A DNA stretch of 64,000 nt from Escherichia phage OSYSP. The notes under the pieces were generated by a model. The model ran no database searches. It was not told the DNA's origin and saw only the letters and a list, made by a program, of their open reading frames with translations. Below are positions 2,175 through 45,118 of this stretch, one piece after another. How positions within the stretch are numbered: position 1 is the first letter of the stretch; each line of letters begins with the position of its first letter. The position numbers and the translations under genes are program-made. The stretch lies in the sequence record MF402939; one strand, given 5' to 3'.

Positions 2175-3152
2175 ATGAGAATATTATTTAGTGCTGATCA
2201 TCATATCAAACTAGGACAGGATAAAGTTCCAAAGGAATGGCAGAAGCGTCGCTTCCTGATGCTAGGAGAACGGTTAAATGATATATTCCATAATCATAAC
2301 TGTGATCTTCATATTGCTGGTGGTGATATACTTGATGTTGCCGACCCGTCGTCAGAAGAAATAGAACTGCTTGAACAGTTCATGTCAAGACTTGACCATC
2401 CAGGCAAAATCTTTACTGGAAATCATGAAATGTTAACTAAAACCATTTCGTGTCTATATCATTATGCGGGGGTTATTAATAAAGTAACTAGTGGGAAGTG
2501 GGAAGTAATTACCAAACCATATCGTTCCCCTGAATTTGATATTGTTCCGTATGATGAAATCCATAAGTCTAAGTGGAAACCATCTGAATCAAAACTATGT
2601 TTCACGCATGTTCGTGGTGAAATCCCTCCACATGTAAAACCAGAAATTGATCTAACTAAGTACAACTGTTATGATACTGTAATTGCTGGCGATTTACATT
2701 CTTATACTAATAGCCAGACTATCGGATCTACTAGACTCCTCTACCCAGGGTCTCCATTAACTACATCGTTCCATAGAGAACGCACAAAAGGTACAAATGG
2801 TTGCTTTATCATTGATACCGACACATTAAAAGTAGAATGGATTGAACTAGGTGATTTACCACAACTGATCCGTAAAACAATCGGAGCAGGTGAAGAGATG
2901 GAACCTAGTGATTATGATCGTGTAGTCTACGAAGTTACTGGTGACGTTGTTCAATTAAAGTCTATCAAAGACTCTGATTTATTAGATAAGAAGATTAACC
3001 ATCGAGTTACTAAAGATGCTAAGTTAAATCTTGTTGATCTTGATATGTTGGGCGAACTTGAACTTTACTTCCGTGAAGTCGAGAAGCTATCTCAAGGCGA
3101 CATTGATAGAATCTTGGCTAGAGCTGCGAAATATGTCAAAGATTACAATTAA
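2175..3152 (+). CDS. SbcD/Mre11-like metallophosphoesterase nuclease
   Basis: Calcineurin-like motifs ADHH, GGDILD, GNHE, GDLHS; overlaps and precedes a Rad50-like ATPase. Confidence 0.85.
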   Translation: MRILFSADHHIKLGQDKVPKEWQKRRFLMLGERLNDIFHNHNCDLHIAGGDILDVADPSSEEIELLEQFMSRLDHPGKIFTGNHEMLTKTISCLYHYAGVINKVTSGKWEVITKPYRSPEFDIVPYDEIHKSKWKPSESKLCFTHVRGEIPPHVKPEIDLTKYNCYDTVIAGDLHSYTNSQTIGSTRLLYPGSPLTTSFHRERTKGTNGCFIIDTDTLKVEWIELGDLPQLIRKTIGAGEEMEPSDYDRVVYEVTGDVVQLKSIKDSDLLDKKINHRVTKDAKLNLVDLDMLGELELYFREVEKLSQGDIDRILARAAKYVKDYN

Positions 3153-4971
3153 GACACTAAAATTTAGTAACGTTATGTCTTACGGTAAGGACATCGTAAT
3201 TCATTTCGATAAGAATCCAGTTACTCAACTAATCGGTGGCAATGGGCTAGGGAAATCTACTATCGCCACGGTTATAGAAGAGCTGTTCTATAATAAGAAC
3301 TCACGTGGTATTAAGAAAGATGCTCTGTTCTCTTGGTCTTCTCCGAAAAAAGAGTATGATATGCACGCTTACTTCTCAAAAGATGAAGATGAGTATGAAT
3401 TGCATAAAGTAGTTAAATCAACTGCTAAGGTTACACTCATTAAGAATGGAGAAGATATTAGTGGGCATACGGCAACCCAAACATATAAGATGATTGAAGA
3501 AATTATGGGGGGTGACTTTCAAACATTCACCAAACTGATTTATCAATCAGTGGGTTCTAATCTAGACTTCCTAAAAGCAACAGATGCAACACGTAAGGCT
3601 TTTCTTGTTAACTTGTTCAATCAAGAGCAATACAAAGAAATGTCAGAAACTATTAAGGCTGACCGTAAAGAAATAGCAAATACCTTAAATAATTTGCAGG
3701 GCCAGATGGCTGTAATTACGAAAATCCTTAATGGAAAAAATAATCTAGGAACTTTGCAGGAACCTGTAGAGGTGCCGGAGTTTGATGAAGAGCCATTAGC
3801 ACAAGAACTTACTGAATCGAAAATTAAGGCGGCATTAGCCAAGTCTCAAGAGGCTAATATTACTAAGTTGCGTAATTTGGACAAAGCTGTACAAGTTGCC
3901 GAACAATCTTTCGAACCTTTCAAAAATTTGCCCGCGCCCACCGACCAAAGTGAAGAGATCTCGAGTGTTACGCGTGACCTAACGATTGTGACCTCACGTG
4001 CGAGCGAAGTTAAGAAACGTTATCAGAAGTTCAAGCAAGAGGCTTCAAATACTGAATGCCCTACTTGCGGTACTCATCTGGATACAACTGCTGCCCAAAA
4101 AGCAATGGATATGGCTAGAACAGAATATGATCCTCTGTTCAAAGAGAAGCAATCTCTTGAAGCTAAGCTAGAACAGTTGAAGAAAGAACAACTTGAGTAC
4201 GTTGCGTATACTAGAGCAAAGGATGCTTTGGATAAAGCGGTGGTAGCTAGAGACGAGTTCAAAAATTCAATGAGTGATGCTTCTTTTGAAGAACTCAATG
4301 TGCAAATCCTACAGGTGCAAATCCGACAATTAGAACAGGAAATCGCTGATGGCCGCTCTAAGGTTGCAATTGCCAAAGAGCATAATGCAAATGTCGAATT
4401 AGCCAACGCAAAATATAAAGCGAAACTAGAACAGATTGAGAAAGCTGAAGCAGAAATGTCTGAGATTACTTCCAAACTTGATGGAGTAGCCGAAGCTGTA
4501 GCTGATCTTGATATTCTAATTGCTGCTTTGAAAAATCTGGTGGGATATAAACTAGAGCATAGTGTGAAAGTATTCGAAGAATTAATTAATAAATACCTTT
4601 CTATTATGACTGGAGGTAAATTCGCACTTGGATTTGAACTTGATGAAACGAAGTTACAAGTAGTAATCTTCAATGATGGAAATCGTACCAGTATGGAGAA
4701 CTGCTCTACTGGTCAGCAAAGTAGAATTAATCTAGCAACCCTGTTAGCTATTCGTATGCTGTTAACATCTATTAGTAAAGTTAATATTAATCTTCTATTC
4801 CTTGATGAAGTAATTAGCTTTATTGATACGAAAGGACTTGATACTCTCGTTGAACTATTAAATGAGGAAGAAAGTCTAAATTCTATCATTGTTTCTCATG
4901 GGCATACGCATCCATTAGCTCATAAGATTACTGTCAAAAAAGATGCAGAAGGATTTTCCTACTTAGAATAA
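3133..4971 (+). CDS. SbcC/Rad50-like ATPase with coiled coil and zinc hook
   Basis: Start taken at MSKITIK (ATG 3133) rather than the track ATG at 3031; Walker A GGNGLGKST, CPTC hook motif in a long coiled-coil region, signature-like STGQQS, Walker B LLFLDEV. Confidence 0.85.
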   Translation: MSKITIKTLKFSNVMSYGKDIVIHFDKNPVTQLIGGNGLGKSTIATVIEELFYNKNSRGIKKDALFSWSSPKKEYDMHAYFSKDEDEYELHKVVKSTAKVTLIKNGEDISGHTATQTYKMIEEIMGGDFQTFTKLIYQSVGSNLDFLKATDATRKAFLVNLFNQEQYKEMSETIKADRKEIANTLNNLQGQMAVITKILNGKNNLGTLQEPVEVPEFDEEPLAQELTESKIKAALAKSQEANITKLRNLDKAVQVAEQSFEPFKNLPAPTDQSEEISSVTRDLTIVTSRASEVKKRYQKFKQEASNTECPTCGTHLDTTAAQKAMDMARTEYDPLFKEKQSLEAKLEQLKKEQLEYVAYTRAKDALDKAVVARDEFKNSMSDASFEELNVQILQVQIRQLEQEIADGRSKVAIAKEHNANVELANAKYKAKLEQIEKAEAEMSEITSKLDGVAEAVADLDILIAALKNLVGYKLEHSVKVFEELINKYLSIMTGGKFALGFELDETKLQVVIFNDGNRTSMENCSTGQQSRINLATLLAIRMLLTSISKVNINLLFLDEVISFIDTKGLDTLVELLNEEESLNSIIVSHGHTHPLAHKITVKKDAEGFSYLE

Positions 4972-7052: not shown

Positions 7053-9962
7053 TTATGAGTTATCTGGCTTAATGAGCTCACTCACAAGTTTTTTCAGTTC
7101 GGTTAATTCTTGCTCAAGTTTGTTAACTTTATCAGCTTGATAACGAAATGCACAAGCTAAATCCGCCATAATTACGTTATTATCAAGAGCTAATGTATCG
7201 TCCGCTTTATCAACAACAATTTGACGGTCTACATATTCTTCACCTTCTTCATTAACACCTATAACATCTGCAAAAATATCCCCGCCAGGAATTAATTTTA
7301 CATATTCCGGGTCTATTTTTAGTAGGTCTTGGGCTATTAAACCAAATCGCTGGATGTTGCTTCCATTGTATTTAAACATTGTAGGCAGCCACTGCATAAC
7401 GCGATCATAGCTTTCTTTTCCATCTGTATAAATTATATCATGCTTTAAATCTCTGTCAGAGTTGGCGGCCTTTTGAAAAATGAAATTTCCACTTGATGAC
7501 CATGTAGTTATATCGTTTGATGCTGGCTGAAACTGGAAGTTACAGAAAAAATTGCCATCACCACGAAGCCTTAACGAGCAAAAAGGCCAAGCATTATTTC
7601 CCTGTGGGATAAGACCCCAAGTTGCACGAATTGGATAACCACCAGTTGATTGTGTACCCCATGAAAGTCCAGGCGCCCATCCACCATCATTGTTAGGAAT
7701 AATCTCGCCCCAAACAAGAGCATTACCCCAATAGTTAGGATCATCCCAGCCCATTTGTTGGGTTTTGCCAGTGTATTGGGCGGAATGAGTTCTGCCGTCA
7801 GGGTAAAACTTGTGCATATAGGCCTGTATCCCTGCTTGATACAATTCTATTCCAAAAGATTCAATGTGTGTGTCGCCTCTTCTGATTAAACCAGCGATAG
7901 CGTAATCGTCATACCAATTGTAACGACTTACACCAGTCCATGTGTTTATGGGTGGATTCATGGTTGAAAATAGTTGTGACGCATTGCGTTCATTCCCGTC
8001 TGCATAAATACCAGCCCCCGGAGCTAATGAGATTGATTTTGCTCCTGAAAAAGTACCATTTTCATTAAATTGATAATAGTGAAACAAGTTATTATGAAAC
8101 ACACCTATTGTATGTTTTCCTACGCCTACTTGAGTTTCGAAATAAGACTGAGAAGAACCAATATCCTCGCCTTGTGTGTTCTTTAATTTTGAATGGTATA
8201 TACCTGCGTTTGCAGTATTTGCATTTTCCGTTTCATTTTCAACATTAAGGCTTAGAAATTTTGGTGCATGTTTTTCGCCAAGTCCTATATTGTTTCTAAT
8301 ACCATTCGCATCCTTAGCACCCGTACCACCAAATTGAATACCTAGTGGTAGCCATTGATTGGTTGTAGCATCATAAACGCCCCAATGATCCCCACCATCT
8401 GGAATGGTTAGATACTTGTTTTTATTTGGGGAATATAAAACTGTTTCACCAGAAGTCTGAAACAGCCTATCAACTCCTAAATTATATCTAGCACCTTCAA
8501 GTGTATCCGCTCCAGTACCACCAGCAATAATTGATAATGGAAGAGATTCCCATGAGATACCATCACCATTTATGTTTTTCTGGAGTACAATAAGCCCATC
8601 ATCTCGCATAACAAATCTATATAATCTATTATGCGAGTATAAAAAAGTATGAACCCCATCCTGCACAAGTGAGTCTATAAGGAGCGTCTGACGAGAAGCA
8701 TTAATATCCGACAGATCTGAAAGATTATTTTCTTTTAGTAACGATTTACCAATAATACCTTCAGCTTTTCCAGCAGCCACTTCTGCACGTCCAGCGTCGG
8801 TAGATGCGCTTTGTGCGCTACTAGCAGCATTACTAGCTTGTTGCCCGGCCTCAACAGCACTGTTACCCGCTTGTGTAGCGGAAATAGCAGCGGCGTCTTT
8901 TAGCACGGTAGTTTCGGACACAGCGGCATCCTTAATTGCTTGCGTCTCGCTTACTGCACTATCCTTAATAGTCTGTGTGTCAGACTTTAATTTTTCAACA
9001 TCTGCTTTTAAAGCTGTTGTTTCACCTACAGCGGCATCCTTAATTGCTTGCGTCTCGCTTACTGCACTATCCTTAATAGTCTGTGTGTCAGACTTTAATT
9101 TTTCAACATCTGCTTTTAAAGCTGTTGTTTCACCTACAGCGCTATCTTTAATTAGTTGAGTATCTGATTTTAGTTGCTCAACATCTGATTTTAAGCCTTG
9201 AATAGTGGTTACTGACTGACTAGCTGAGGTTGCAGAACTAGCTGCGTTAGTCTCACTATCTTTGGCTTTAGTCTCACTAGTTTTAGCATTTGTTTCACTA
9301 GTTTTAGCATTTGTTTCAGAGGTTTTTGCAGCAGACGCTGATGTAGCAGCTTGTGTAGAGAATGTTTCCGCCTCATTCCTAAAACCACTGGAATCCGCAG
9401 CGGAAGCGGCAGCATTAGTCTCACTGATTTTTGCTTTATCTTCACTAATTTTTGCAACAGCAGCAGATGCAGCAGCATTAGTCTCACTGATTTTTGCTTT
9501 ATCTTCACTAGCCTTTGCATTAATTTCGCTAGTTTTAGCTTTATCTTCACTAGCCTTTGCATTAATTTCGCTAGTTTTAGCTTTATCTTCACTAGTCTTT
9601 GCATTAGTTTCGGATATTTTAGCTGCTGCAGCGGATTCTGCAGACTTATTGGCTGACGTTGCGGACTGAGTAGCAGAAGTAGCTGATTGGGTAGCCGATG
9701 CTTCAGAAGCTTCCGCGGAAATCGCAGCTTCCTGTTCAGAATTCTTAGCATTAAGCTCTGAAGTCTTAGCAGCTATTTCAGAATCTTTTGCAGCCGCAGC
9801 AGATTTAGCAGTGGCCTCTATAGAAGATACTAACTCATTAGCAGTAATAGAGCTAATAGAATTTCCAAGAGTTACTGTGTATCTAGGAAATTTACTAGCA
9901 GTAGCTTTAGTATCATCAATATTTAATATTTGTTGTACAATAATCTTAGTAGTTATTGCCAT
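7053..9962 (-). CDS. L-shaped tail fibre protein (pb1-like) with C-terminal intramolecular chaperone domain
   Basis: 969 aa; Ala/Ser/Thr/Lys-rich repeat region encoded by tandem DNA repeats; C-terminal segment resembles autocleaving chaperone domains of fibre proteins; first gene of late module as in T5. Confidence 0.75.
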   Translation of the reverse strand: MAITTKIIVQQILNIDDTKATASKFPRYTVTLGNSISSITANELVSSIEATAKSAAAAKDSEIAAKTSELNAKNSEQEAAISAEASEASATQSATSATQSATSANKSAESAAAAKISETNAKTSEDKAKTSEINAKASEDKAKTSEINAKASEDKAKISETNAAASAAVAKISEDKAKISETNAAASAADSSGFRNEAETFSTQAATSASAAKTSETNAKTSETNAKTSETKAKDSETNAASSATSASQSVTTIQGLKSDVEQLKSDTQLIKDSAVGETTALKADVEKLKSDTQTIKDSAVSETQAIKDAAVGETTALKADVEKLKSDTQTIKDSAVSETQAIKDAAVSETTVLKDAAAISATQAGNSAVEAGQQASNAASSAQSASTDAGRAEVAAGKAEGIIGKSLLKENNLSDLSDINASRQTLLIDSLVQDGVHTFLYSHNRLYRFVMRDDGLIVLQKNINGDGISWESLPLSIIAGGTGADTLEGARYNLGVDRLFQTSGETVLYSPNKNKYLTIPDGGDHWGVYDATTNQWLPLGIQFGGTGAKDANGIRNNIGLGEKHAPKFLSLNVENETENANTANAGIYHSKLKNTQGEDIGSSQSYFETQVGVGKHTIGVFHNNLFHYYQFNENGTFSGAKSISLAPGAGIYADGNERNASQLFSTMNPPINTWTGVSRYNWYDDYAIAGLIRRGDTHIESFGIELYQAGIQAYMHKFYPDGRTHSAQYTGKTQQMGWDDPNYWGNALVWGEIIPNNDGGWAPGLSWGTQSTGGYPIRATWGLIPQGNNAWPFCSLRLRGDGNFFCNFQFQPASNDITTWSSSGNFIFQKAANSDRDLKHDIIYTDGKESYDRVMQWLPTMFKYNGSNIQRFGLIAQDLLKIDPEYVKLIPGGDIFADVIGVNEEGEEYVDRQIVVDKADDTLALDNNVIMADLACAFRYQADKVNKLEQELTELKKLVSELIKPDNS

Positions 9963-26147: not shown

Positions 26148-26164
26148 TTTTAAATAATTCTCCG

Positions 26165-26797
26165 TTATTCTTTAACGTAGCCTAAAGCTATCGCAAGTTT
26201 TTCTAGTTCAGAAAGATTACGTTCTTGAGCTGGGACAGCTTTAGAACTTATTGCAGTAAAAGATTTACGCCATTCAGTATAATCATGACCATTCATGCTC
26301 TTAGCGAGATTGAATGTTGAGTCCTGATTACAAGGTACAGAAACTACCGAAACTTCGTATAGTTCTAAATCTTTAATAATAAATATATCAGTAGCTTCAT
26401 CCCACTCTGCATCTAGGCAGCGGAATCCGATACTAAAAGTTTTCAGTACACCGTTTTTAATTAGTGAAAAGATAGCCGGGTCAGAACTTTCATAGATCTC
26501 GCATTCGATTTCGAGACCCATTTCAGTAGGGTTAAGATCAATACACTTACCGATTGGACGACGATGATCGTGTCCGAAAAGAATAATCGGGTTTTTCATA
26601 TAGTTAGTAAGTGCATTAGATGTTTTCCACGCAGAAGCAGGAATTACATCACCAGCGCGATCTTTACTAATTGTATTAGCGAATCCACGGATTTTTACAA
26701 CGCCCTCTTTGGATTCGCTATCAATAGATTTAATATAAGCATCTAAATGAACGGGTGCTGATTTTAACTTGTTATAGTCAATAGCAGCTTGTGTCAT
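26165..26797 (-). CDS. Prohead protease (T5 pb11-like)
   Basis: 210 aa, located between decoration protein and capsid genes. Confidence 0.75.
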   Translation of the reverse strand: MTQAAIDYNKLKSAPVHLDAYIKSIDSESKEGVVKIRGFANTISKDRAGDVIPASAWKTSNALTNYMKNPIILFGHDHRRPIGKCIDLNPTEMGLEIECEIYESSDPAIFSLIKNGVLKTFSIGFRCLDAEWDEATDIFIIKDLELYEVSVVSVPCNQDSTFNLAKSMNGHDYTEWRKSFTAISSKAVPAQERNLSELEKLAIALGYVKE

Positions 26798-38395: not shown

Positions 38396-39223
38396 TAAGC
38401 AACAATCCGCTCACCGCTATAATCAATTTAAAGAACTCCATGCAGGCCGCTATATCCCAGTTAGGGGGCGGGACACATTATGGTAAGTGCCGACCGTCAG
38501 ATTTTATCAAGTTATCGCTCTTATCGAACTGAGTACATCTTAAAGCCTATCGGCTAGGTTGTCAAACAATTTTTTGCAGTTTTTTATAATTCTCTTTCAA
38601 GTCAATCATAATATTTCGCCAGATCATTTCTAAACCTTGCTGGCGGCCTTTCTTGTACTGCGTGAATCGGTATTTTACCGATCTTTGCGCTACTGTCAAC
38701 AAATTTTTTGTTTTGCTGTCCAGTGCCTTGCTAGGTTTACCAGTGATCAATAAAGTTTGTTTCATATCTGCGATTCCTTATAATGTATAAGTTTACCGCC
38801 GATAGACTTTAAGATGTACCCAATTTTTAAAGAGCGCGGCGGTAAACTTCCCGCCGTGTAGTTCGTCATTGCCGCCCTACGAGATAAATAATAAGGGATT
38901 CACAAAAATGGCGCAACCTTATTTTTGTAAAGAAACGTAAAGACAAATGCCACCGGACACCGTGCGGCGACCTGGGCGCGACGCACTAAAATTAAAAGAA
39001 ACGGGCGCGCGAATACCACAAAACATAGCAGATAGGCAAGTAATTTTTTCATTTATATTTGCTTTGCCCTACTTGACAAAATCTAAAAAACTCGTGGTAG
39101 CGATAAACGAGGGTAGGCAATGCAATGGCATGGCTAAAAACTTCATCGCGTTCTAGGGCGTTTTAGGCGCATTCTAGCCTTGTTGATAACTTATCCCCAG
39201 AAGCAAAAATGAAATTTTCCTAG

Positions 39224-39633
39224 TTATCCACTTGACTTTTATTTTCCAGTGGATAACTACTTATTTTATAAAATAAATTAATTGACTTTTATTTGTTAGT
39301 ATGCGTCGGAAAGATAGCAGACTAATAATTGCTAGGATGATAATCATGCTGGTGGATTGTAACGGCTTAAATTATTAGCAGACTATTAATCACGGAAAAT
39401 CTCATTAGCCAACTAACTATTTCATGATATATAATATACTTATAAATTAAGGAGAAATAATAATTATAAGAAATAATAGCTACAGTAAATATTAACTATA
39501 AGAAACTATCGGCCTAAGTGAGAACCACTATCATTTAAGTTATCCACAACGTTATCCACAGCACAAAATGATTTGACATAATAGGCGGTGATATAAGGAC
39601 TTTTACACAGACTTATCCACAGCTTATCCTACT
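39224..39633. promoter_or_regulatory. Divergent control region with DnaA boxes: inverted pair TTATCCACT/AGTGGATAA (39224-39256), palindrome TTATTTTATAAAATAA, perfect TTATCCACA boxes at 39540, 39552 and 39613
   Basis: Exact matches to the E. coli DnaA box consensus TTATCCACA read directly; duplicated TTGACTTTTATTT on both sides of the palindrome. Confidence 0.6.
39405..39435 (+). promoter_or_regulatory. Candidate promoter for the rightward pre-early operon
   Basis: TATAAT at 39430-39435 followed by ACTTATAAATTAAGGAGA, resembling the other early promoters; -35 is weak. Confidence 0.35.
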
Positions 39634-39914
39634 GTATAAATATACAAGGTAAAAAGGTAGTGTTAACAACTGCAATCAATTTTAAGCGGCCTAAAACGCT
39701 TTCTAACGAGCTAAATGCGGTGGGGTAATATTAAAGTAAAGTCTTCACCCGTCGCCCTGGTGGCTTCACTGTGTTTTGCTCTTTATTGCACCGCTGCGCG
39801 GTTAGCATAAAACTAGGCGCTAGGCAAGGAAAATAAAAAGGTAAAATAATATTTGCCCCTAGAAAGAAAATACCTTTATCATTCACTCACCGATTAACGA
39901 GGGAGGCCGAACAA

Positions 39915-40907
39915 ATGAGGCTTTATAAACCAGATAACGCAACCGTCTTAAAAGGTGCATTGCGCAACCTGCTGGATGGTAGCAGAACAACCAGCATTAA
40001 ACATTTTGTTTTCAATATTGAAACACTTCATCGTAATTTTCTTGATGATTACGATGCTTATAATATGAATAGTTTTCTACCGTTATATAATCAAGGGGCA
40101 ACGCTTGTTTTATATAATCAGGAATCTCACTTGCTTACTAGTCGAGGGCCAGATACTGATTTTATTATAGTGAAAGGCAGTACAGTAAAAGCCTATGATG
40201 CGGGGGCGGGCTTAGAAGTTTTCACGATAGAAAATTATGAGCCTTATGATAAGGATCTTTATGACGTAGAAAATTTTCTCGATTCATTTTGGCGTTATTT
40301 ATCAATTGGGTGGAATCGATCAGATTATCACGGGTATCGTTTTGCGGCTATAATGGCTTTTGATGATAACGGTAATTTTTTGCTACCGTCGGAATTATAC
40401 CCGTATGTATATAATGATTTAATAGAGGAGGCTGGTTTTACTTTCTGGAAAGATGAAGATCAGCCTATTGACAACACGGAAAAACATGCTGTAAATTCTA
40501 ACACTCAAAGCGTTAACACTCAAACTACTGAAAATAAAGGGAAAAATACTATGACCAAGATCGCTAACATCGTTGCCGCTAATAAATCCGCTGTTGTAAA
40601 CGCTGCAAAACTGGAAGCGGGTAAAATTGCACTGACTCAAATCACGAAAGTAGCGGCTAAAAAACCGCCGTTTATTATCAAGGGTTATATTGATACGCCG
40701 ATTGGTCGGGTAGTGATTGCCAACCTGCTGAGTGTAGCGGTTGACCAGTACGCCCCGAGTAACCAGAAAGCGAAAGCGGTAGCAGGAGCGGCTATGGAAG
40801 CGGCAATGCTAGAAATGGTGCAAAGTTTTAACATCGCTGAAATGATCGATGAAATGGTAAAAGGTATCGATATTTCTACTTTCACCGTTAACAACGAAAG
40901 CGAGTAA
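39915..40907 (+). CDS. Hypothetical pre-early protein (330 aa), two-domain
   Basis: Strong RBS GAGGGAGG; N-terminal domain, Asn/Thr/Gln-rich linker, Ala/Lys-rich C-terminal domain; no family recognised. Confidence 0.6.
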   Translation: MRLYKPDNATVLKGALRNLLDGSRTTSIKHFVFNIETLHRNFLDDYDAYNMNSFLPLYNQGATLVLYNQESHLLTSRGPDTDFIIVKGSTVKAYDAGAGLEVFTIENYEPYDKDLYDVENFLDSFWRYLSIGWNRSDYHGYRFAAIMAFDDNGNFLLPSELYPYVYNDLIEEAGFTFWKDEDQPIDNTEKHAVNSNTQSVNTQTTENKGKNTMTKIANIVAANKSAVVNAAKLEAGKIALTQITKVAAKKPPFIIKGYIDTPIGRVVIANLLSVAVDQYAPSNQKAKAVAGAAMEAAMLEMVQSFNIAEMIDEMVKGIDISTFTVNNESE

Positions 40908-40971
40908 TAATATTAAGCGGGGATTGTTACCCCGCTTTAATGTTCCCTTGTTAATTAATAGGAGGCTAATT

Positions 40972-41466
40972 ATGTCAGAAGAAAAATATGGCTTCTCACT
41001 GGGAGAAGTGAGCACGGCTAAACACGATATGATCATTTTGGTCGATTGTCATACTGGCTATTGCGGAGAAGGCTGGACGGAGGAACATTTTGTTCCAGCT
41101 GGCTGTAATCTGGACGCTTTCGCTCAGGAAATGGCTGTTGATAATGCTTCTCGTTTCGGTAGCGATGGCTATGAAGACGAGGAAACTGGCGAATGGTATG
41201 AAAATGAAAACGTATACGCTAGTCTTTATCATTATCAATTAAGTAAATCCGGCGCATATGTAAACGGCGGCGATCCTATTAATTCCATCATGAGATTAAT
41301 TATTAAACATGGTGGCGTCGAGATAATTGATAACAAAGCGGTAATATACGCAAACCGATTAAAACAGCTTGTTTATATTCCTGATAATACCCGATGGGAT
41401 GAATATGCTGTTTTGCATGACGAATTGAAACGATGTTTCAATATTGAATCCTTACAAGTAGTCTAA
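40972..41466 (+). CDS. Hypothetical pre-early protein (164 aa)
   Basis: Start at MSEEKYG with RBS AGGAGG (the track ORF begins at 40924); acidic, Cys-containing. Confidence 0.55.
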   Translation: MSEEKYGFSLGEVSTAKHDMIILVDCHTGYCGEGWTEEHFVPAGCNLDAFAQEMAVDNASRFGSDGYEDEETGEWYENENVYASLYHYQLSKSGAYVNGGDPINSIMRLIIKHGGVEIIDNKAVIYANRLKQLVYIPDNTRWDEYAVLHDELKRCFNIESLQVV

Positions 41467-41571
41467 TGTAAAGTTTTGTAAAGGTCGCCTTTTATGGTGG
41501 CCTTTTTTGTTATAATGCTTTTACACCAAAACGGTGGATTGAAAATTTTCCCAAAAATTTGGAGGCTTAAA

Positions 41572-41802
41572 ATGGTTGCATACTCTTCTGCTAGTCATCT
41601 GTTTACCGCGCAAGGCTGGGTATCTAATCGCGTCATCATTCATGAAATGGTGCAGGAGTTCGGCATTGCTAAAACTTACACTACCATTCAGGAACTATAC
41701 AACGCCGATAAAATCGATCAGCAAACGGCTGGCTTTTTGCTGGATACCCTGAAGGCGGAACATTGCACCAAAAAACAAGCCGCTAAAATTGTTTTAATGT
41801 AA
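41572..41802 (+). CDS. Hypothetical pre-early protein (76 aa)
   Basis: Start at MVAYSSA with GGAGG RBS (the track ORF begins at 41494). Confidence 0.5.
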   Translation: MVAYSSASHLFTAQGWVSNRVIIHEMVQEFGIAKTYTTIQELYNADKIDQQTAGFLLDTLKAEHCTKKQAAKIVLM

Positions 41803-41848
41803 TTAATAACGGGGCGTTATTTTCGCCCCGCTAACTAGGAGAATGAAA

Positions 41849-41998
41849 ATGGTTATTTTTCGAGCTATTCTGGCAGGTATCTTGGGCGCTATTTTATCGT
41901 TGTTTGCAATAGCTTTCGGTGTTCACGCCGTTATTGTCGGCGCGGGTATCGCCGTTTTTTCTTATCTGCTGGGCTGCATGATTAGTAAAGGAGAATAA
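41849..41998 (+). CDS. Small membrane protein (49 aa)
   Basis: AGGAG RBS; two hydrophobic stretches; below the ORF-track length cutoff. Confidence 0.45.
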   Translation: MVIFRAILAGILGAILSLFAIAFGVHAVIVGAGIAVFSYLLGCMISKGE

Positions 41999-42000
41999 AA

Positions 42001-42213
42001 ATGATCCGCAACGTTTCTCTTGCTCGTTCGAAAGGCTTTAAGCTGGTGGACGTTAACACGTTCGAGCGTGAAGATTGTAAAATCGAATATGTAGCGCGGA
42101 ATAAAAACGCCTTTCGTGTTACCGAGAAAAAATTCGATAAGCGCGGCAACGTGGTCGCTGAAACGGTTAAACATTTTGCCACCTTTTACGCTGCGTTTCG
42201 TGGGGTACTATGA
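42001..42213 (+). CDS. Hypothetical pre-early protein (70 aa)
   Basis: AGGAG RBS; basic; ATG 3 nt after the previous stop. Confidence 0.5.
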   Translation: MIRNVSLARSKGFKLVDVNTFEREDCKIEYVARNKNAFRVTEKKFDKRGNVVAETVKHFATFYAAFRGVL

Positions 42214-42335
42214 AAAGCGTTATCATTATTAGCCTTGCAATGGTTGGCGGTTTTACCGCCACCTTATTTAAAAATGATCCCCTTTTACTGGGGATTTTTA
42301 TGCTTTTATCTGGCTATCTGATTGGGAGGTTATAA
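42210..42335 (+). CDS. Small membrane protein (41 aa)
   Basis: ATG overlaps previous stop (ATGA); hydrophobic throughout. Confidence 0.4.
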   Translation: MKSVIIISLAMVGGFTATLFKNDPLLLGIFMLLSGYLIGRL

Positions 42336-42336
42336 A

Positions 42337-42681
42337 ATGGTAATTTATGAAGGCAATCGTTTTGTTGCTAATTGCCGTCCTGCATTGCTAGCAAATTACT
42401 TAAATCAGCTTTCACCAGCTTATAAGGGCGTTATTAATATTTATGAGGGCAAAGTGCATTATAAGGTTAATGCGGTCGTTGCCCGTGAACTAGCGTTTCA
42501 ATTTTTGACCTTTGCATCTTGTGACGTTCAGGTTATGGGTGAGGCGTTAATTGCAGAAAATGAAGATGATTTTATTAACATTTTTCGCAAGATATGCACC
42601 GAGCGCCTGATCATGAAAGGCGCTTATATTCAATCCACTGCGGATAGTATTGAAACAGCGTTTCGAAAGGTGGCGCAATGA
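42337..42681 (+). CDS. Hypothetical pre-early protein (114 aa)
   Basis: Start at MVIYEGN with GGGAGG RBS (the track ORF begins at 42322). Confidence 0.5.
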   Translation: MVIYEGNRFVANCRPALLANYLNQLSPAYKGVINIYEGKVHYKVNAVVARELAFQFLTFASCDVQVMGEALIAENEDDFINIFRKICTERLIMKGAYIQSTADSIETAFRKVAQ

Positions 42682-42836
42682 AAAAGTTTTTAATAGCTGG
42701 CATGTTTCCGTTGTTGCCTTATGTAATTTGCTGGGCTTTATATGCTCATGGTGCTAGTGTTCCCGGTGTGGCTTCATTTGGTGTATCGGCGGGCTTTCTA
42801 GCTGGACTATTGGCAAGCGTATATTTACGCAAATAA
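42678..42836 (+). CDS. Small membrane protein (52 aa)
   Basis: ATG overlaps previous stop (ATGA); two hydrophobic helices. Confidence 0.4.
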   Translation: MKKFLIAGMFPLLPYVICWALYAHGASVPGVASFGVSAGFLAGLLASVYLRK

Positions 42837-42855
42837 TTAATAACGGAGCGTTATT

Positions 42856-43050
42856 ATGAGCAATAAAATTGTTGTAACCAAAATCAGTACAATGGTTGAT
42901 GTTTTTTACGTGCCCGATACGCCGGAGAATCGGCGAGCGGTCGAGCGTGGCGAGTATGATAAAGTGATTTATGATCACGATGGTTACTATCAACATTTGG
43001 TGGATTCCTACGGGGAGGAGGAAAAAATCACGCATCGACTACCAGACTAA
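42856..43050 (+). CDS. Hypothetical pre-early protein (64 aa)
   Basis: Last gene of the rightward operon; preceded by palindrome AATAACGGAGCGTTATT; acidic. Confidence 0.5.
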   Translation: MSNKIVVTKISTMVDVFYVPDTPENRRAVERGEYDKVIYDHDGYYQHLVDSYGEEEKITHRLPD

Positions 43051-43090
43051 TAATCACGGGGCGCAACTACCAGGGAGTGCCCCCAATTCT

Positions 43091-43113
43091 CAAATGAGAA
43101 TCATTCTCATTTG
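43091..43113. repeat. Perfect 23-bp palindrome CAAATGAGAATCATTCTCATTTG
   Basis: Read directly; same core as the 43447-43608 repeat family. Confidence 0.7.
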
Positions 43114-43128
43114 ACTGCGCCCGCGATG

Positions 43129-43187
43129 GTTAGCCTGCTAATGATTAGGGTGTTACGTGTCGCCTTGTGTGATCGTTAGCAGGCTAA
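43129..43187. repeat. 13-bp inverted repeat GTTAGCCTGCTAA / TTAGCAGGCTAAC with 33-bp spacer
   Basis: Read directly; could form a large hairpin. Confidence 0.6.
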
Positions 43188-43334
43188 CTAATTTTTAAGC
43201 CTCCTCCAATTTTGCCCTTGTTTTAGTACCCCCACCAAAATTAAACGCGTTAGAATGCGATCTAGGACGTTTTAGCGGTATACTAGAATTATTCACTACA
43301 TAGGAATACTGTATATTTATACAGTAGGATATCC

Positions 43335-43416
43335 TGTGGATAAGTCTGTTAATAACGCCTCAAAATGGCTAGGATTCTGTCAAATCAAATCGTGCTGTTA
43401 ATAAGTCTGTGGATAA
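43335..43416. promoter_or_regulatory. Two consensus DnaA boxes (TGTGGATAA) in repeated context CTGTTAATAAGTCTG
   Basis: Exact reverse-complement matches to TTATCCACA at 43335-43343 and 43408-43416. Confidence 0.55.
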
Positions 43417-43446
43417 CTTAAATAACAGTGTTTCTCACTTCCATTC

Positions 43447-43608
43447 TTAAATGAGAATCATTATCATTCGCAGTCCACTGTCTAACCGATAATCATTTCC
43501 TTTCTTAAATGAGAATCATTTCACTTTTTGAATAGTTCTCATTTCCTTTCTTAAATGAGAATAATTATCATTCGCATTCCACTTCTTAAATGATAATGAT
43601 TCTCATTC
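43447..43608. repeat. Five copies of 24-bp motif CTTAAATGAGAATCATTATCATTCG (one inverted), Fur-box-like
   Basis: Copies at 43447, 43504, 43550 and inverted at 43584, plus palindrome at 43091; core matches 15 of 19 positions of the E. coli Fur box GATAATGATAATCATTATC. Confidence 0.6.
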
Positions 43609-43637
43609 AAAGTCGCAGGGCAATTGCCCTGCGCTTT

Positions 43638-44239
43638 TGTGCAAATCCGACATTGCTCCACGGGTGTTACGTGCGGGCATGTATGTGCGAATCCGACAAT
43701 TTTTGGTAGTGTGCGAATCCGACCCTAAAAACTTTTGTGATGTGCGAATCCAACAATGAATTTTCCCAAAAACTCCAGCAATCACGAACTGCGTTCGAAT
43801 CCTGTGGGATATGTGCAAATCCGACACGGTTTTTCTAGGATTAAGATGTGCAAATCCGACAAGATTTTTGTGACTTCGATGAGAGGGTGTGTGATTGTAT
43901 AGGTTTGAGGAGAAGATGAGAGAGCGAGAAAAGTTTGGGAGGCTAGAAGGATGCGGGCGCAGGATTGGTGCGGAGCACCTGATTTGCGGGGATTTTGGGG
44001 AAGAGTTGAGATAATTTGGGAAGATTTGAGATAGGTGCAGAAAAAGTAAAATTTTATTAGCAAAATGGGGCAAAATAGCTTGACAAGTGAAAATTTCTGT
44101 GGCTCTAAAAACTCAGGCAATCATGGGCCTTCGGCCCGAAATAATGCTGCCATTTTCAAGAGATTATATGTTCCTAAAAACTTAGGCGTTTGTGCAAATC
44201 CGACCATAAATTTCTAGGAACACAATGTACAAATCCGAC
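43638..44239. repeat. Nine direct copies of 15-bp motif TGTGCRAATCCGACA
   Basis: Copies starting near 43638, 43684, 43711, 43741, 43812, 43847, 44190, 44225 and a degenerate one at 43785; motif has partial dyad symmetry. Confidence 0.65.
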
Positions 44240-44280
44240 AGTAATTTCTGGAAATGTGTTTTCAAAAAATGTCTCCTAGA

Positions 44281-44340
44281 AATAACCGCCCTCCCTATAA
44301 CCGCCCTGTATTAACCGCCCTGTATTAACCGCCTATTGCT
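44281..44340. repeat. Four tandem copies of about 14 bp AACCGCCCTNTATT
   Basis: ATAACCGCCCTCCCTATAACCGCCCTGTATTAACCGCCCTGTATTAACCGCCTATT read directly. Confidence 0.6.
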
Positions 44341-44761
44341 AGAGTTTCTAGGAATATGAAAACCGCCTGAGTTGACTAGAGAAACAGATTTAAAGTTTAA
44401 TGTAAACTCTAGAGTTAGTGCTCAACTATTCCTAGAAACTTAGGAGTCTAGAAGAAAGTGTTGTGCCATCCTAGCAGATGAGCGGCAACAGGTGTATCAT
44501 CTTGAACACAAATATTGCCTTTAAATATTTTTAGTTATTTAAAAGTAAATATACCCCCATTTCATGAGAGCTTACTCGTGGGGCGCGTGAGTATTACGGA
44601 AGACTTAGTAATTAGATCTATACTCGTGCTGTCGCAACGTATAGACGTAATACTAAGTGTAATAATCATCGCCCCTAGAGTTCAAAACAAGAGTTGTTTT
44701 TAATCTATGAGATTATTATAACATGTGCCGCAATGAGTTGTCAAGAAGATTTTGTTAATGT

Positions 44762-45118
44762 TTATACATCTCCTTCGAAATTGGTATTGGGATCGTAAAT
44801 CTTTTTGGCTCCTGTATTTAATAGGAATCGTTCTGCAAGTTGTGGGTGAATATCAAAGAACTCTGTACATCCTTCGAATCCCTTTAAATTACAGCGGTAT
44901 TTCTTAAAGTAGATATGAGCAGCGGCTTCTAGATCTCTAGGGTTATGGGTTTCATAGATTCCATACACATATAAATCGTCAAAACCTCGATAGACTATCT
45001 TATCTAAGTTTAGAGTTTGAATCCTATTATGTGGATTCATGCTAATACCGATCTTTGTTCTCTTAGGGATCTTTGTCAGATCCCTGTTCGCAAGAATATA
45101 TACTTTATATAGTGACAT
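44762..45118 (-). CDS. Possible GIY-YIG-like (T5orf172-type) domain protein
   Basis: 118 aa; N-terminal YKVYIL...KIGIS pattern reminiscent of GIY-YIG-like folds; weak assignment. Confidence 0.4.
   Translation of the reverse strand: MSLYKVYILANRDLTKIPKRTKIGISMNPHNRIQTLNLDKIVYRGFDDLYVYGIYETHNPRDLEAAAHIYFKKYRCNLKGFEGCTEFFDIHPQLAERFLLNTGAKKIYDPNTNFEGDV

Follow-up and report, generated by a model that had tools for sequence, protein, structure and literature searches.

Two almost identical copies of a 17-bp palindrome are located within one rightward operon of Escherichia phage OSYSP (MF402939), which raises the question of whether they represent a control element shared by two genes or are related for another reason. 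The window, i.e. the whole stretch of 64,000 nucleotides that was analysed, derives from a T5-like phage (Demerecviridae), and the palindromes lie in the dispensable right half of its pre-early terminal-repeat DNA; in T5, the hegG-017 block was reported to be deletable (bioRxiv 10.64898/2026.04.02.716235). A limited literature search surfaced no transcript map of the T5 pre-early region. Based on the analyses described below, we consider it probable that the palindromes represent a single cassette-end sequence, present as paralogs in a mosaic accessory operon, and not a dedicated control element.

The palindrome belongs to a 22-bp repeat that opens with a stop codon

Both 17-mers, AATAACGGGGCGTTATT (41805-41821) and AATAACGGAGCGTTATT (42839-42855), are present as described in the original prediction, and the surrounding 22-mers, TAATTAATAACGGGGCGTTATT (41800-41821) and TAATTAATAACGGAGCGTTATT (42834-42855), are indeed identical at 21 of 22 positions. 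Each 22-mer opens with the TAA stop codon of its upstream gene. The position assigned to both copies, immediately upstream of a start codon, applies to the second copy, which abuts the ATG at 42856, but not to the first, which ends 27 nt before the ATG at 41849, with the descending arm of a GC hairpin and the Shine-Dalgarno (SD) sequence AGGAG of the 49-aa gene starting there in the interval.

When up to two mismatches were allowed, the 17-mer pattern matched three times in the window versus 0.01 matches expected from shuffled sequences, the third match (26153-26169, minus strand) being a looser look-alike of a ribosome-binding site (RBS). Since the window contains 21 perfect 7-bp palindromes with a 3-nt loop (5.7 ± 2.1 in shuffles), such a palindrome alone is not rare, and the non-random part is that the same one occurs twice; that a given 22-mer is palindromic by chance is nevertheless improbable a priori, a point against the cassette-end reading, although 7-bp palindromes are common in the window. 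A genome-wide search for further copies, which had been suggested as a check, revealed no full copy beyond sites 1 and 2 but a partial third copy in the same operon, and a scan of the whole T5 genome (111 kb) with mismatches identified no sites beyond the two junctions. In IMG/VR, an exact scan for AATAACGGNGCGTTATT returned 39 matches, which in T5-like contigs are located at sites 1 and 2 only, while the remaining ones lie in unrelated, mostly apparently coding sequences without a common context. Together, the exact scan and the T5 scan rule out a dispersed repeat family. The covariance models of Rfam 15 (E ≤ 1) did not match at site 1 or 2; three matches within 39000-45000 are far below the gathering thresholds and located away from both sites. 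The published T5 palindromes palC-palJ all lie within untranslated repeat regions (bioRxiv 10.1101/866236).

At site 1, a conserved GC-rich stem-loop out-competes the palindrome

All features described here and below are encoded on the plus strand unless stated otherwise. The 76-aa gene (T5.012 homolog, phrog_5145; 41572-41802) ends with a TAA stop codon at 41800-41802, i.e. the first three bases of the first 22-mer. The A/T-rich tract that follows leads into a GC-rich stem-loop (CGGGGCG-UUAUUUU-CGCCCCG, 41810-41830; A-rich 5' flank), of which the 22-mer covers the ascending arm CGGGGCG and the greater part of the loop; the AT palindrome lies within this 22-mer. The SD of the 49-aa membrane-protein gene (T5.013 homolog; 41837-41998 including the SD at 41837-41841, ATG at 41849, stop codon at 41996-41998) follows downstream at 7 nt from the start codon, resulting in the layout TAATTAATAAC-CGGGGCG..CGCCCCG-..AGGAG-N7-ATG.

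The GC hairpin and the AT palindrome overlap and are mutually exclusive. With −14.8 kcal/mol, the GC hairpin represents the minimum free energy structure of the region and out-competes the palindrome, which alone reaches only −3.4 kcal/mol as RNA; it is also the sole all-GC, perfect 7-bp stem in the window, and the true SD of the 49-aa gene is located outside both hairpins. Among relatives, the core pairs of the GC hairpin are maintained in about 100% of cases, with two-sided changes at at least three pairs and a covariation score that was matched by none of 500 shuffles; the stem variants include GGGGCG/CGCCCC, GGGGGATAT/ATATCCCCC, GGGGCGA/TCGCCCC and GGGGATA/TATCCCC. The AT palindrome is 67% paired across the 13 distinct relatives compared at site 1, without compensation and with a score indistinguishable from shuffles, and every departure breaks the pair. 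Its right arm coincides with the GC hairpin's variable loop and is often broken; in T5 itself, this loop reads CGTTACT.

The hairpin stays with the 76-aa gene even when the next gene differs, as in L095 and L097, which lack the 49-aa gene and whose homology stops where the hairpin ends (41829). None of the annotations of T5, HASG4 and Lindwurm lists the hairpin as a terminator. No U-tract was found 3' of the stem, where CTAACTAGG follows with two T in nine positions, and the terminator scan does not list site 1, so that rightward transcription should read through; on the minus strand, the stem is followed by TTATTAATT, which is marginal as a T-run. The hairpin's most likely role would be that of an intercistronic stem-loop, either shielding the 3' end of upstream mRNA or attenuating transcription weakly, and it might possibly terminate antisense transcripts. 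As judged from the sequence comparison, it is this predicted and so far unannotated GC stem-loop after the T5.012-type gene, supported by covariation, that merits annotation at site 1.

Two further candidates were considered at this site. The ATT codon at 41819 is in frame with the 49-aa gene in this phage; an N-terminal extension from this codon was rejected, the codon being ACT in most relatives. A pseudoknot in which the GC hairpin's loop UUAUU pairs with AAUAA would be excluded by geometry, as its connecting loop would comprise 0 nt.

At site 2, a probable half-hairpin is fused to the 64-aa gene

The TAA stop codon (42834-42836) of the 52-aa membrane-protein gene (phrog_35622; 42678-42836) begins the second 22-mer. 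From the stop codon through the A/T tract and the arm to the loop, this copy is built like the first; it lacks a descending arm and runs directly into the ATG of the 64-aa gene (T5.017 homolog, phrog_6973; 42856-43050). This gene is translated from the SD GGAG (42845-42848) within the repeat, which is located 7 nt from the ATG, and the core ACGGRGCG lies on either side of it (copies 2 and 3).

According to the origin that we propose, the ancestral cassette end would have begun with stop codons in the A/T-rich tract TAAT(T)AATAAC and continued into a terminator-type hairpin with GGGGCG as the G-rich ascending arm and TTATT as the loop. At site 1, the hairpin would have been retained in full, as the 3'-terminal element of the 76-aa gene. 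Site 2 would have kept no more than the ascending arm and loop, now adjoining the ATG of the 64-aa gene, and the G-run (now GGAG) would have been co-opted as the SD of this gene. The dyad symmetry would result from a fortuitous complementarity between the A/T tract AATAAC and the loop GTTATT, which both copies would have inherited.

Several observations in relatives are consistent with this origin. The right half of site 2 is constant with the 64-aa gene, while the left half varies with the upstream cassette or is absent: at least five different upstream genes join at (T)AATAACGG, the 52-aa cassette is replaced or missing in many relatives, and in L010 and L011 the 64-aa gene is instead coupled through an ATGA overlap. 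Site 2 of T5 carries the 17-mer found at site 1 of the window, and site 2 of L095 and L120 carries the palindrome-breaking CGTTACT or GTTACT, a variant that is also common at site 1, which argues for shared ancestry of the two sites; in L095, both sites have the same 19-mer, including the palindrome-breaking C. Counting against it, none of 302 GenBank records had an intact hairpin in front of the 64-aa gene when phages were searched with a synthetic intact junction (at least 80% coverage required). A deletion between two GTTATT sequences, one located in the hairpin loop and the other in an 'ACTAGGAGTTATT-ATG' spacer, as the candidate origin of the site-2 allele is thus unsupported at this coverage, though not disproved. 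In IMG/VR, where the 52-aa gene was tested for a native full hairpin end, the next gene was always the 64-aa gene.

The original prediction of an RNA hairpin is partly supported: a hairpin touching an RBS describes site 2 of this phage fairly, where the SD lies at the loop of a stem of −5.0 kcal/mol, but not site 1, where the GC hairpin prevails. In the strongest form of the prediction, which we regard as rather unlikely, the site-2 palindrome would be a selected hairpin that hides the SD and the AUG until the stem is opened by a ribosome that terminates on the 52-aa ORF, thereby tying both products together, with the site-1 copy as a non-functional relative. The geometry at site 2 is suitable: the mostly A-U stem (42838-42856) includes G42845, GAG forms the loop, A42856 of the AUG takes part in the last pair, and the stop codon of the 52-aa ORF is located 1 nt before the stem. 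Moreover, a hairpin of −3.9 to −6.6 kcal/mol persists in 9-10 of 13 AATAAC-type alleles, whose upstream contexts are of five kinds, L005 retains the pairing via a G.U pair, and the loop-closing pair changes from G-C to U-A between allele classes, on which grounds some selection for the hairpin is conceivable. The covariation score of 0.082, versus 0.034 in shuffles, was reached by 1 of 500 shuffles. However, the left arm is absent in 8 of the 20 distinct alleles compared at site 2, and equally 8 (about 40%) form no stable hairpin; in three more (L019, L095 and L120), an arm is broken. Gene and SD spacing are unchanged in all of these, so that the hairpin appears dispensable in nature; its stability ranges from −6.6 to 0 kcal/mol across alleles. 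Only one pair shows a two-sided change, five of the eight pairs depart solely through unpaired cells, and in L010 and L011 an ATGA overlap provides the coupling instead. The stability itself also counts against this alternative, since for RBS hairpins −5 kcal/mol is reportedly near the value below which the effect is small (de Smit and van Duin). If site 2 arose as a paralogous cassette end, the remaining hairpin would at most mildly couple translation of the 64-aa gene to termination on the 52-aa ORF.

Copies of the repeat coincide with cassette gain and loss

After the last stop codon of the operon, a third partial copy, TAATAATCACGGGGCG, is followed by the hairpin GGGGCGC...GUGCCCC (43058-43083; whole feature 43048-43083), and the 61-nt stretch holding this hairpin folds at −19.1 kcal/mol. 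No U-tract was found at site 3 of this phage, where CAATTCTC follows the hairpin. The orthologs of site 3 resemble real terminators: L096 (TAATAATAACGGGGC...GCCCCGCCTTTT) and L123 (TAATAATAACGGGGAttagATCCCCGTTTTT) have terminators with a T-run, T-runs are also present in L017 and L021, and some relatives carry a true terminator at this position with the same left flank.

The 64-aa gene is absent in L098, L090, L094 and L096. In L098, the junction TATAGTAACGGGGCGCAACT consists of the left flank of site 2 and the right flank of site 3, with the 64-aa gene missing between the two copies. Homology breakpoints cluster at 41829, 42681, 42835-42856 and 43046, and indels are bounded by copies of the motif in L098, L090 and L095. 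The copies are located where cassettes are swapped, inserted and deleted among T5-like phages, which suggests that they are recombination joints or scars.

A stronger claim would be that the phages actively recombine at TAAT(T)AATAACGGRGCG, which would then be a promoter-less analogue of the promoter-early stem-loop (PeSL) elements of T4-type phages, maintained as homologous exchange between its copies shuffles pre-early accessory genes. This would fit three copies in one operon that each mark a cassette boundary, the L098 junction, which is the product expected from recombination of copy 2 with copy 3, the variety of upstream genes joined at the motif, the T and C variants at both sites, which suggest exchange, and the similar description of PeSL (PMC2839356). 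On the other hand, there are only 2-3 copies with only 9-22 bp of identity, a promoter component is missing, and no fusion of site 1 with site 2, i.e. no deletion between copies 1 and 2, was present in any of the 302 GenBank records. Furthermore, other indels in the same operon are located at unrelated microhomologies (ATGA, AAGGTGGCGCAAT, TATATAT and AGGAG), which is compatible with general illegitimate recombination and a subsequent selection of functional junctions. We therefore consider active maintenance quite improbable; the broader notion that T5-like phages use this stop tract plus half-hairpin as a preferred recombination site for swapping pre-early accessory (host-takeover or anti-defence) cassettes, the leftover half-hairpin becoming the RBS of the incoming gene, is doubtful as well, if slightly less so.

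The palindrome is very unlikely to be an operator

That the 17-bp dyad is a DNA operator at which a dimeric phage or host protein controls transcription within the operon, the other function originally envisaged, found no support and is very unlikely: the perfect 7-3-7 dyad symmetry occurs twice and a promoter-like sequence (TTGGCA-16-AATAAT, 42810-42837) is located just upstream of site 2, but the dyad is unconserved at both sites, its right arm being the variable hairpin loop at site 1 and its left arm missing at site 2 in many phages, and the T5 scan mentioned above yielded no additional sites. The promoter-like sequence is the sole match near site 2 (10 of 12 positions) and lies within the upstream coding sequence, no such match is present at site 1, and with 33 matches versus 24.1 ± 4.6 expected from shuffles such sequences are barely above expectation. 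No helix-turn-helix or other regulator domain was detected by Pfam or PHROGs in the nine neighbouring products.

Discussion

The eye-catching repeated palindrome in the T5 first-step-transfer operon is probably not a control switch. As a pair of paralogous cassette ends, it would rather give a picture of how dispensable pre-early genes are shuffled, with indels located exactly at the joints of stop codon and RBS and with a piece of a terminator-like hairpin recycled as an SD sequence. The finding is mostly of housekeeping value; it could be useful for comparing or engineering the region, e.g. for designing deletions that avoid polar effects, and it offers a modest parallel with PeSL-mediated shuffling in T4-type phages.

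Among known elements, two can be set aside. Integron attC sites comprise 57-141 bp with the core sites RYYYAAC ... GTTRRRY and are accompanied by an integron integrase; the element described here comprises only 17-22 bp, matches only the AAC/GTT of the 7-nt cores (TAATAAC, GTTATTA) and has no integrase nearby. The T5 nick consensus given in the T5 record is NPu-pGCGC-N, and neither site contains GCGC, the annotated terminal-repeat nick being located far downstream at 9748.

With RBS-sequestering hairpins, e.g. those at the coat and replicase initiation sites of MS2, only site 2 shares an SD and a first AUG base within a stem-loop that a terminating ribosome could open; its stem, however, is weak, absent in many orthologs and without convincing compensation, and the comparison is inapplicable to site 1. 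Intrinsic (Rho-independent) terminators, including the bidirectional type composed of A-tract, hairpin and T-tract, are resembled in the GC-rich stem, the short loop directly after the stop codon and the A-rich 5' flank. A stable GC stem-loop is present at site 1 and a hairpin at site 3, while site 2, which lacks the descending arm, has no GC hairpin; in contrast to terminators, no T-run follows the hairpins at sites 1 and 3 on the coding strand, and site 1 lies within the gene string.

In the PeSL cassettes of T4-type phages (Arbiol et al. 2010, PMC2839356; Comeau et al. 2014, PMC4122927), an AT-rich tract with a stop codon is followed by a polyG/polyC stem-loop and this by an SD and start codon (PMC2839356). 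The T5-like motif likewise is a short conserved intergenic sequence among small non-essential genes, its copies bound some of the indels between related phages, and at site 1 a polyG/polyC stem-loop is located between the AT-rich stop tract and the next SD and start codon. It differs in that it occurs in another phage family (Demerecviridae), has no sigma-70 promoter and is present in 2-3 copies, all in one operon and one of them truncated to a half-hairpin, instead of dozens; moreover, recombination between copies is deduced here from one genome with an empty site.

In lambdoid phages and mycobacteriophages, homology breakpoints are located at gene boundaries, and short shared sequences, termed linkers, are found at the mosaic joints. 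The T5-like operon resembles these systems in both the position of its breakpoints and its short shared joint sequences; it differs from them in that its joint is a recognisable piece of a hairpin that is apparently re-used as an RBS.

Genomic setting and the repeated palindrome

The window belongs to a T5-like phage (Tequintavirus), and positions 39500-44000 align at 85-93% identity with coordinates 5.6-10.1 kb in the terminal repeats of numerous T5-like genomes. The region represents T5.011-T5.017, a series of rightward genes that lies in the pre-early (first-step-transfer) DNA, directly ahead of the untranslated injection-stop region, and encodes, in order, products of 330 aa, 164 aa, 76 aa (41572-41802, T5.012-like), 49 aa (41849-41998), 70 aa (42001-42213), 41 aa (ORF 42210-42335, phrog_19184), 114 aa (42337-42681), 52 aa (42678-42836) and 64 aa (42856-43050, T5.017-like), all but one of which fall into PHROG families of unknown function. 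T5 deleted for hegG through 017 was reported to be viable (preprint 10.64898/2026.04.02.716235), and the genes of this block are accessory. A T-run accompanies a strong terminator-like hairpin at 41480-41505, and the extended -10 element TGTTATAAT comes directly after it (together 41480-41516), so the 76-aa gene may have its own promoter and the predicted rightward operon may comprise more than one transcription unit. Further downstream, the injection-stop region starts with a perfect 25-bp palindrome conserved in relatives (TCAAATGAGAATCATTCTCATTTGA, 43090-43114), whose core TGAGAATCATTCTCA resembles the E. coli Fur box TGATAATNATTATCA (13 of 15 positions); the related GATAATCATTCTCATT is located upstream of genes in three relatives (L095-L097). 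A 12/12 match to the sigma-70 consensus promoter with an extended -10 TG (44715-44744, minus strand) is directed leftwards to the injection-stop region.

Both 17-mers were found where the original prediction had placed them (AATAACGGGGCGTTATT, 41805-41821; AATAACGGAGCGTTATT, 42839-42855), and the surrounding 22-mers (41800-41821 and 42834-42855), which both begin at the TAA stop of the upstream ORF (41800, 42834), indeed differ by a single base. The claimed position immediately upstream of two start codons applies to copy 2, which abuts the ATG at 42856, but not to copy 1, which ends 27 nt before the ATG of the 49-aa gene (41849), a gene with its own AGGAG at 41837-41841. With two or fewer mismatches allowed, the window contains three occurrences of the pattern versus 0.01 expected, and there are 21 perfect 7-bp palindromes with a 3-nt loop versus 5.7 ± 2.1 in dinucleotide shuffles. 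The non-random feature is the repetition; a single 7-bp palindrome is not unusual in this window.

A conserved GC stem-loop at site 1

At site 1, following the 76-aa gene, the AT palindrome overlaps the GC hairpin CGGGGCG-UUAUUUU-CGCCCCG (41810-41830), and the two structures are mutually exclusive. RNA folding assigned -14.8 kcal/mol to the GC hairpin, which is the minimum free energy structure of the region, and -3.4 kcal/mol to the AT palindrome alone; within the 64 kb of the window, no other perfect 7-bp stem consists of G and C alone. In relatives (25+ IMG/VR contigs, 13 metagenome contigs, HASG4 and Lindwurm), the stems vary yet all pair (GGGGCG/CGCCCC, GGGGCGA/TCGCCCC, GGGGGATAT/ATATCCCCC, GGGGATA/TATCCCC, G10/C5), and the loops vary as well (TTATTTT, TTACTTT, TTAGTTT, AAGTA and others). 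Among 13 distinct sequences, the core of the GC helix stays paired practically throughout, three or more of its pairs show changes on both sides, and its covariation score was reached by 0 of 500 shuffles, while the AT palindrome is 67% paired, with each departure breaking a pair, and is not distinguishable from shuffles. The hairpin remains with the 76-aa gene where the next gene differs, and homology to L095 and L097 stops at 41829. Its flanks are A-rich on the 5' side and lack a T-run on the 3' side; it was not called in a terminator scan of the window, and on the coding strand it lacks the U-tract of an intrinsic terminator. The records of T5, HASG4 and Lindwurm carry no annotation for it, and a GC hairpin after the T5.012-type gene, backed by covariation, represents a small new annotation.

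Site 2 as a probable truncated copy serving as ribosome-binding site

T5, which reads CGTTACT at site 1, carries AATAACGGGGCGTTATT at site 2 (between the 52-aa and 64-aa genes), identical to the site-1 17-mer of the window, and at site 2 (TTAATAACGGGGCGTTACT-ATG) L095 repeats the 19-mer of its own site 1, palindrome-breaking C included. From these identities we conclude that a site-1-type hairpin and site 2 are homologous over the 5' flank, the ascending arm and the loop; judged by the sequences, site 2 appears to be such a hairpin that was cut within its loop and fused to an ATG. At position 21 of the 22-mer, each of the two sites shows both variants, CGTTATT and CGTTACT, depending on the phage, which suggests either exchange between the sites or parallel mutation.

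Beyond the stop of the 64-aa gene, the last of the operon, there is a third member (43048-43083), a copy of the motif TAATAA(T/-)[C/A]ACGGGGC in which TAATAATCACGGGGCG precedes a hairpin (43058-43083). The same left flank sits on a genuine terminator in L096 (TAATAATAACGGGGC...GCCCCGCCTTTT, 4140-4175) and L123 (TAATAATAACGGGGAttagATCCCCGTTTTT), and site 3 is a canonical terminator with T-run in L096, L123, L017 and L021. Alignment of the sites yields the shared core TA[A/G]T[A/C]ACGG[G/A]GCG.

Within site 2, GGAG (42845-42848) provides the 64-aa gene with its Shine-Dalgarno sequence, 7 nt before the ATG, and RNA folding predicts a hairpin of 8 bp with a triloop (42838-42856, -5.0 kcal/mol). 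That this palindrome is a selected coupling hairpin seems rather unlikely to us. A formal count over 20 distinct alleles gives 86.6% paired cells, a figure inflated because the AU-rich TTTACT class was aligned onto AATAAC; five of the eight pairs depart solely by unpaired cells, and two-sided change is limited to the loop-closing pair. The right half, G(C)GTTATT-ATG, hardly changes from relative to relative, whereas the left half varies with the upstream sequence: the AATAAC type occurs in at least five contexts (CGCAAATAATTAATAACGG, GTCAACTAATAACGG, TTATATAGTAACGG, ATTTTTAATAACGG, CATCTATTAATAACGG), the TTTACTAGG type, in which TAG is the stop of a different small gene and overlaps the Shine-Dalgarno sequence, forms no stable hairpin, and in a third type, which lacks the 52-aa gene, the 114-aa gene overlaps the 64-aa gene through ATGA. 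The 52-aa gene is cleanly absent from L010 and L011 (about 2990-3005), where the 114-aa and 64-aa genes are joined at the ATGA stop/start overlap (GGCGCAATGAGCAAT). Natural alleles range from -6.6 to 0 kcal/mol, and L019, L095 and L120 carry single, uncompensated arm-breaking changes. Since natural alleles thus include broken and absent hairpins, the site-2 hairpin is common but dispensable, and any selection for it is putative.

Gain and loss of gene cassettes

In blastn comparisons of 41300-43300 with 25 relatives, homology breaks at 41829, 42223/42323, 42681, 42835-42856 and 43046, in all cases at gene boundaries. Close relatives differ in whether they carry the 41-aa ORF (42210-42335, phrog_19184), the breakpoints being 42223 and 42323. 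The 64-aa gene is missing from L098, and the junction TATAGTAACGGGGCGCAACT of this phage combines a site-2 left flank of the L005/L111 type with a site-3 right flank; direct repeats of ACGGRGCG thus enclose the 64-aa cassette. One copy of ACGGGGCG is left in L098 where this gene is missing, and at 3470-3790 the same phage has, after the 114-aa gene, one additional gene estimated by eye at roughly 90 codons and flanked by 13-bp direct repeats AAGGTGGCGCAAT. A recombination joint resembling the promoter-early stem-loop (PeSL) cassette and maintained for that role would fit the bracketed cassette, and we regard this as improbable: other indels are located at other short repeats (ATGA, AAGGTGGCGCAAT, TATATAT, AGGAG), and none of 302 GenBank records shows copies 1 and 2 fused by a deletion. 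Nor did these records contain a 64-aa gene preceded by an intact hairpin.

Search for further copies

The proposed search for further copies did not extend the family, as T5 (111 kb) adds just one look-alike, AATAACGGAGAATTATT, where ribosomes would bind for the major head protein gene, between the head-protease stop and the major head protein start (T5 about 103006, minus strand; window 26153-26169, minus strand), where it forms a 'stop-AATAACGGAG-AT-rich spacer' initiation region. Within T5-like contigs of IMG/VR, the exact 17-mer occurs solely at the two junctions; the remaining matches are unrelated sequences without common context, mostly apparently coding. Rfam gave nothing at either site, and the named T5 palindromes palC-palJ are located in untranslated repeat regions, not at sites 1 and 2 (10.1101/866236). 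A DNA operator, which a repeated palindrome could represent, is very improbable, no regulator-like product being found among the local genes.

Interpretation and comparison with known elements

The reading we favor, with moderate confidence, is that of two cassette-end copies, a conserved stem-loop at site 1 and a truncated copy turned ribosome-binding site at site 2. The cassette-end sequence would consist of a stop tract and a half-hairpin, of which both palindromes would be copies. Site 1 would be an intercistronic GC stem-loop of the terminator type without U-tract, putatively acting as a read-through attenuator, 3'-end stabilizer or antisense terminator, and site 2 would now serve the 64-aa gene. 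The dyad symmetry would be an inherited accident, AATAAC being complementary to the loop GTTATT, and the -5 kcal/mol hairpin would at most weakly couple translation of the 64-aa gene to the 52-aa ORF.

Among described systems, the PeSL of T4-type phages comes closest; in it, a stop codon in an AT tract, a polyG/polyC stem-loop, a Shine-Dalgarno sequence and a start codon follow each other, and its copies bound indels (PMC2839356, PMC4122927). The T5-like element shares the stop in an AT tract, the polyG/polyC stem-loop, the Shine-Dalgarno sequence with start codon and, for some of its indels, boundaries at motif copies; unlike PeSL, it has no promoter and exists in only two to three copies, and recombination between them is putative. 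It may work as PeSL does, yet it is not a PeSL member. Its class is that of phage intergenic stem-loop and mosaic-junction motifs, a known kind.
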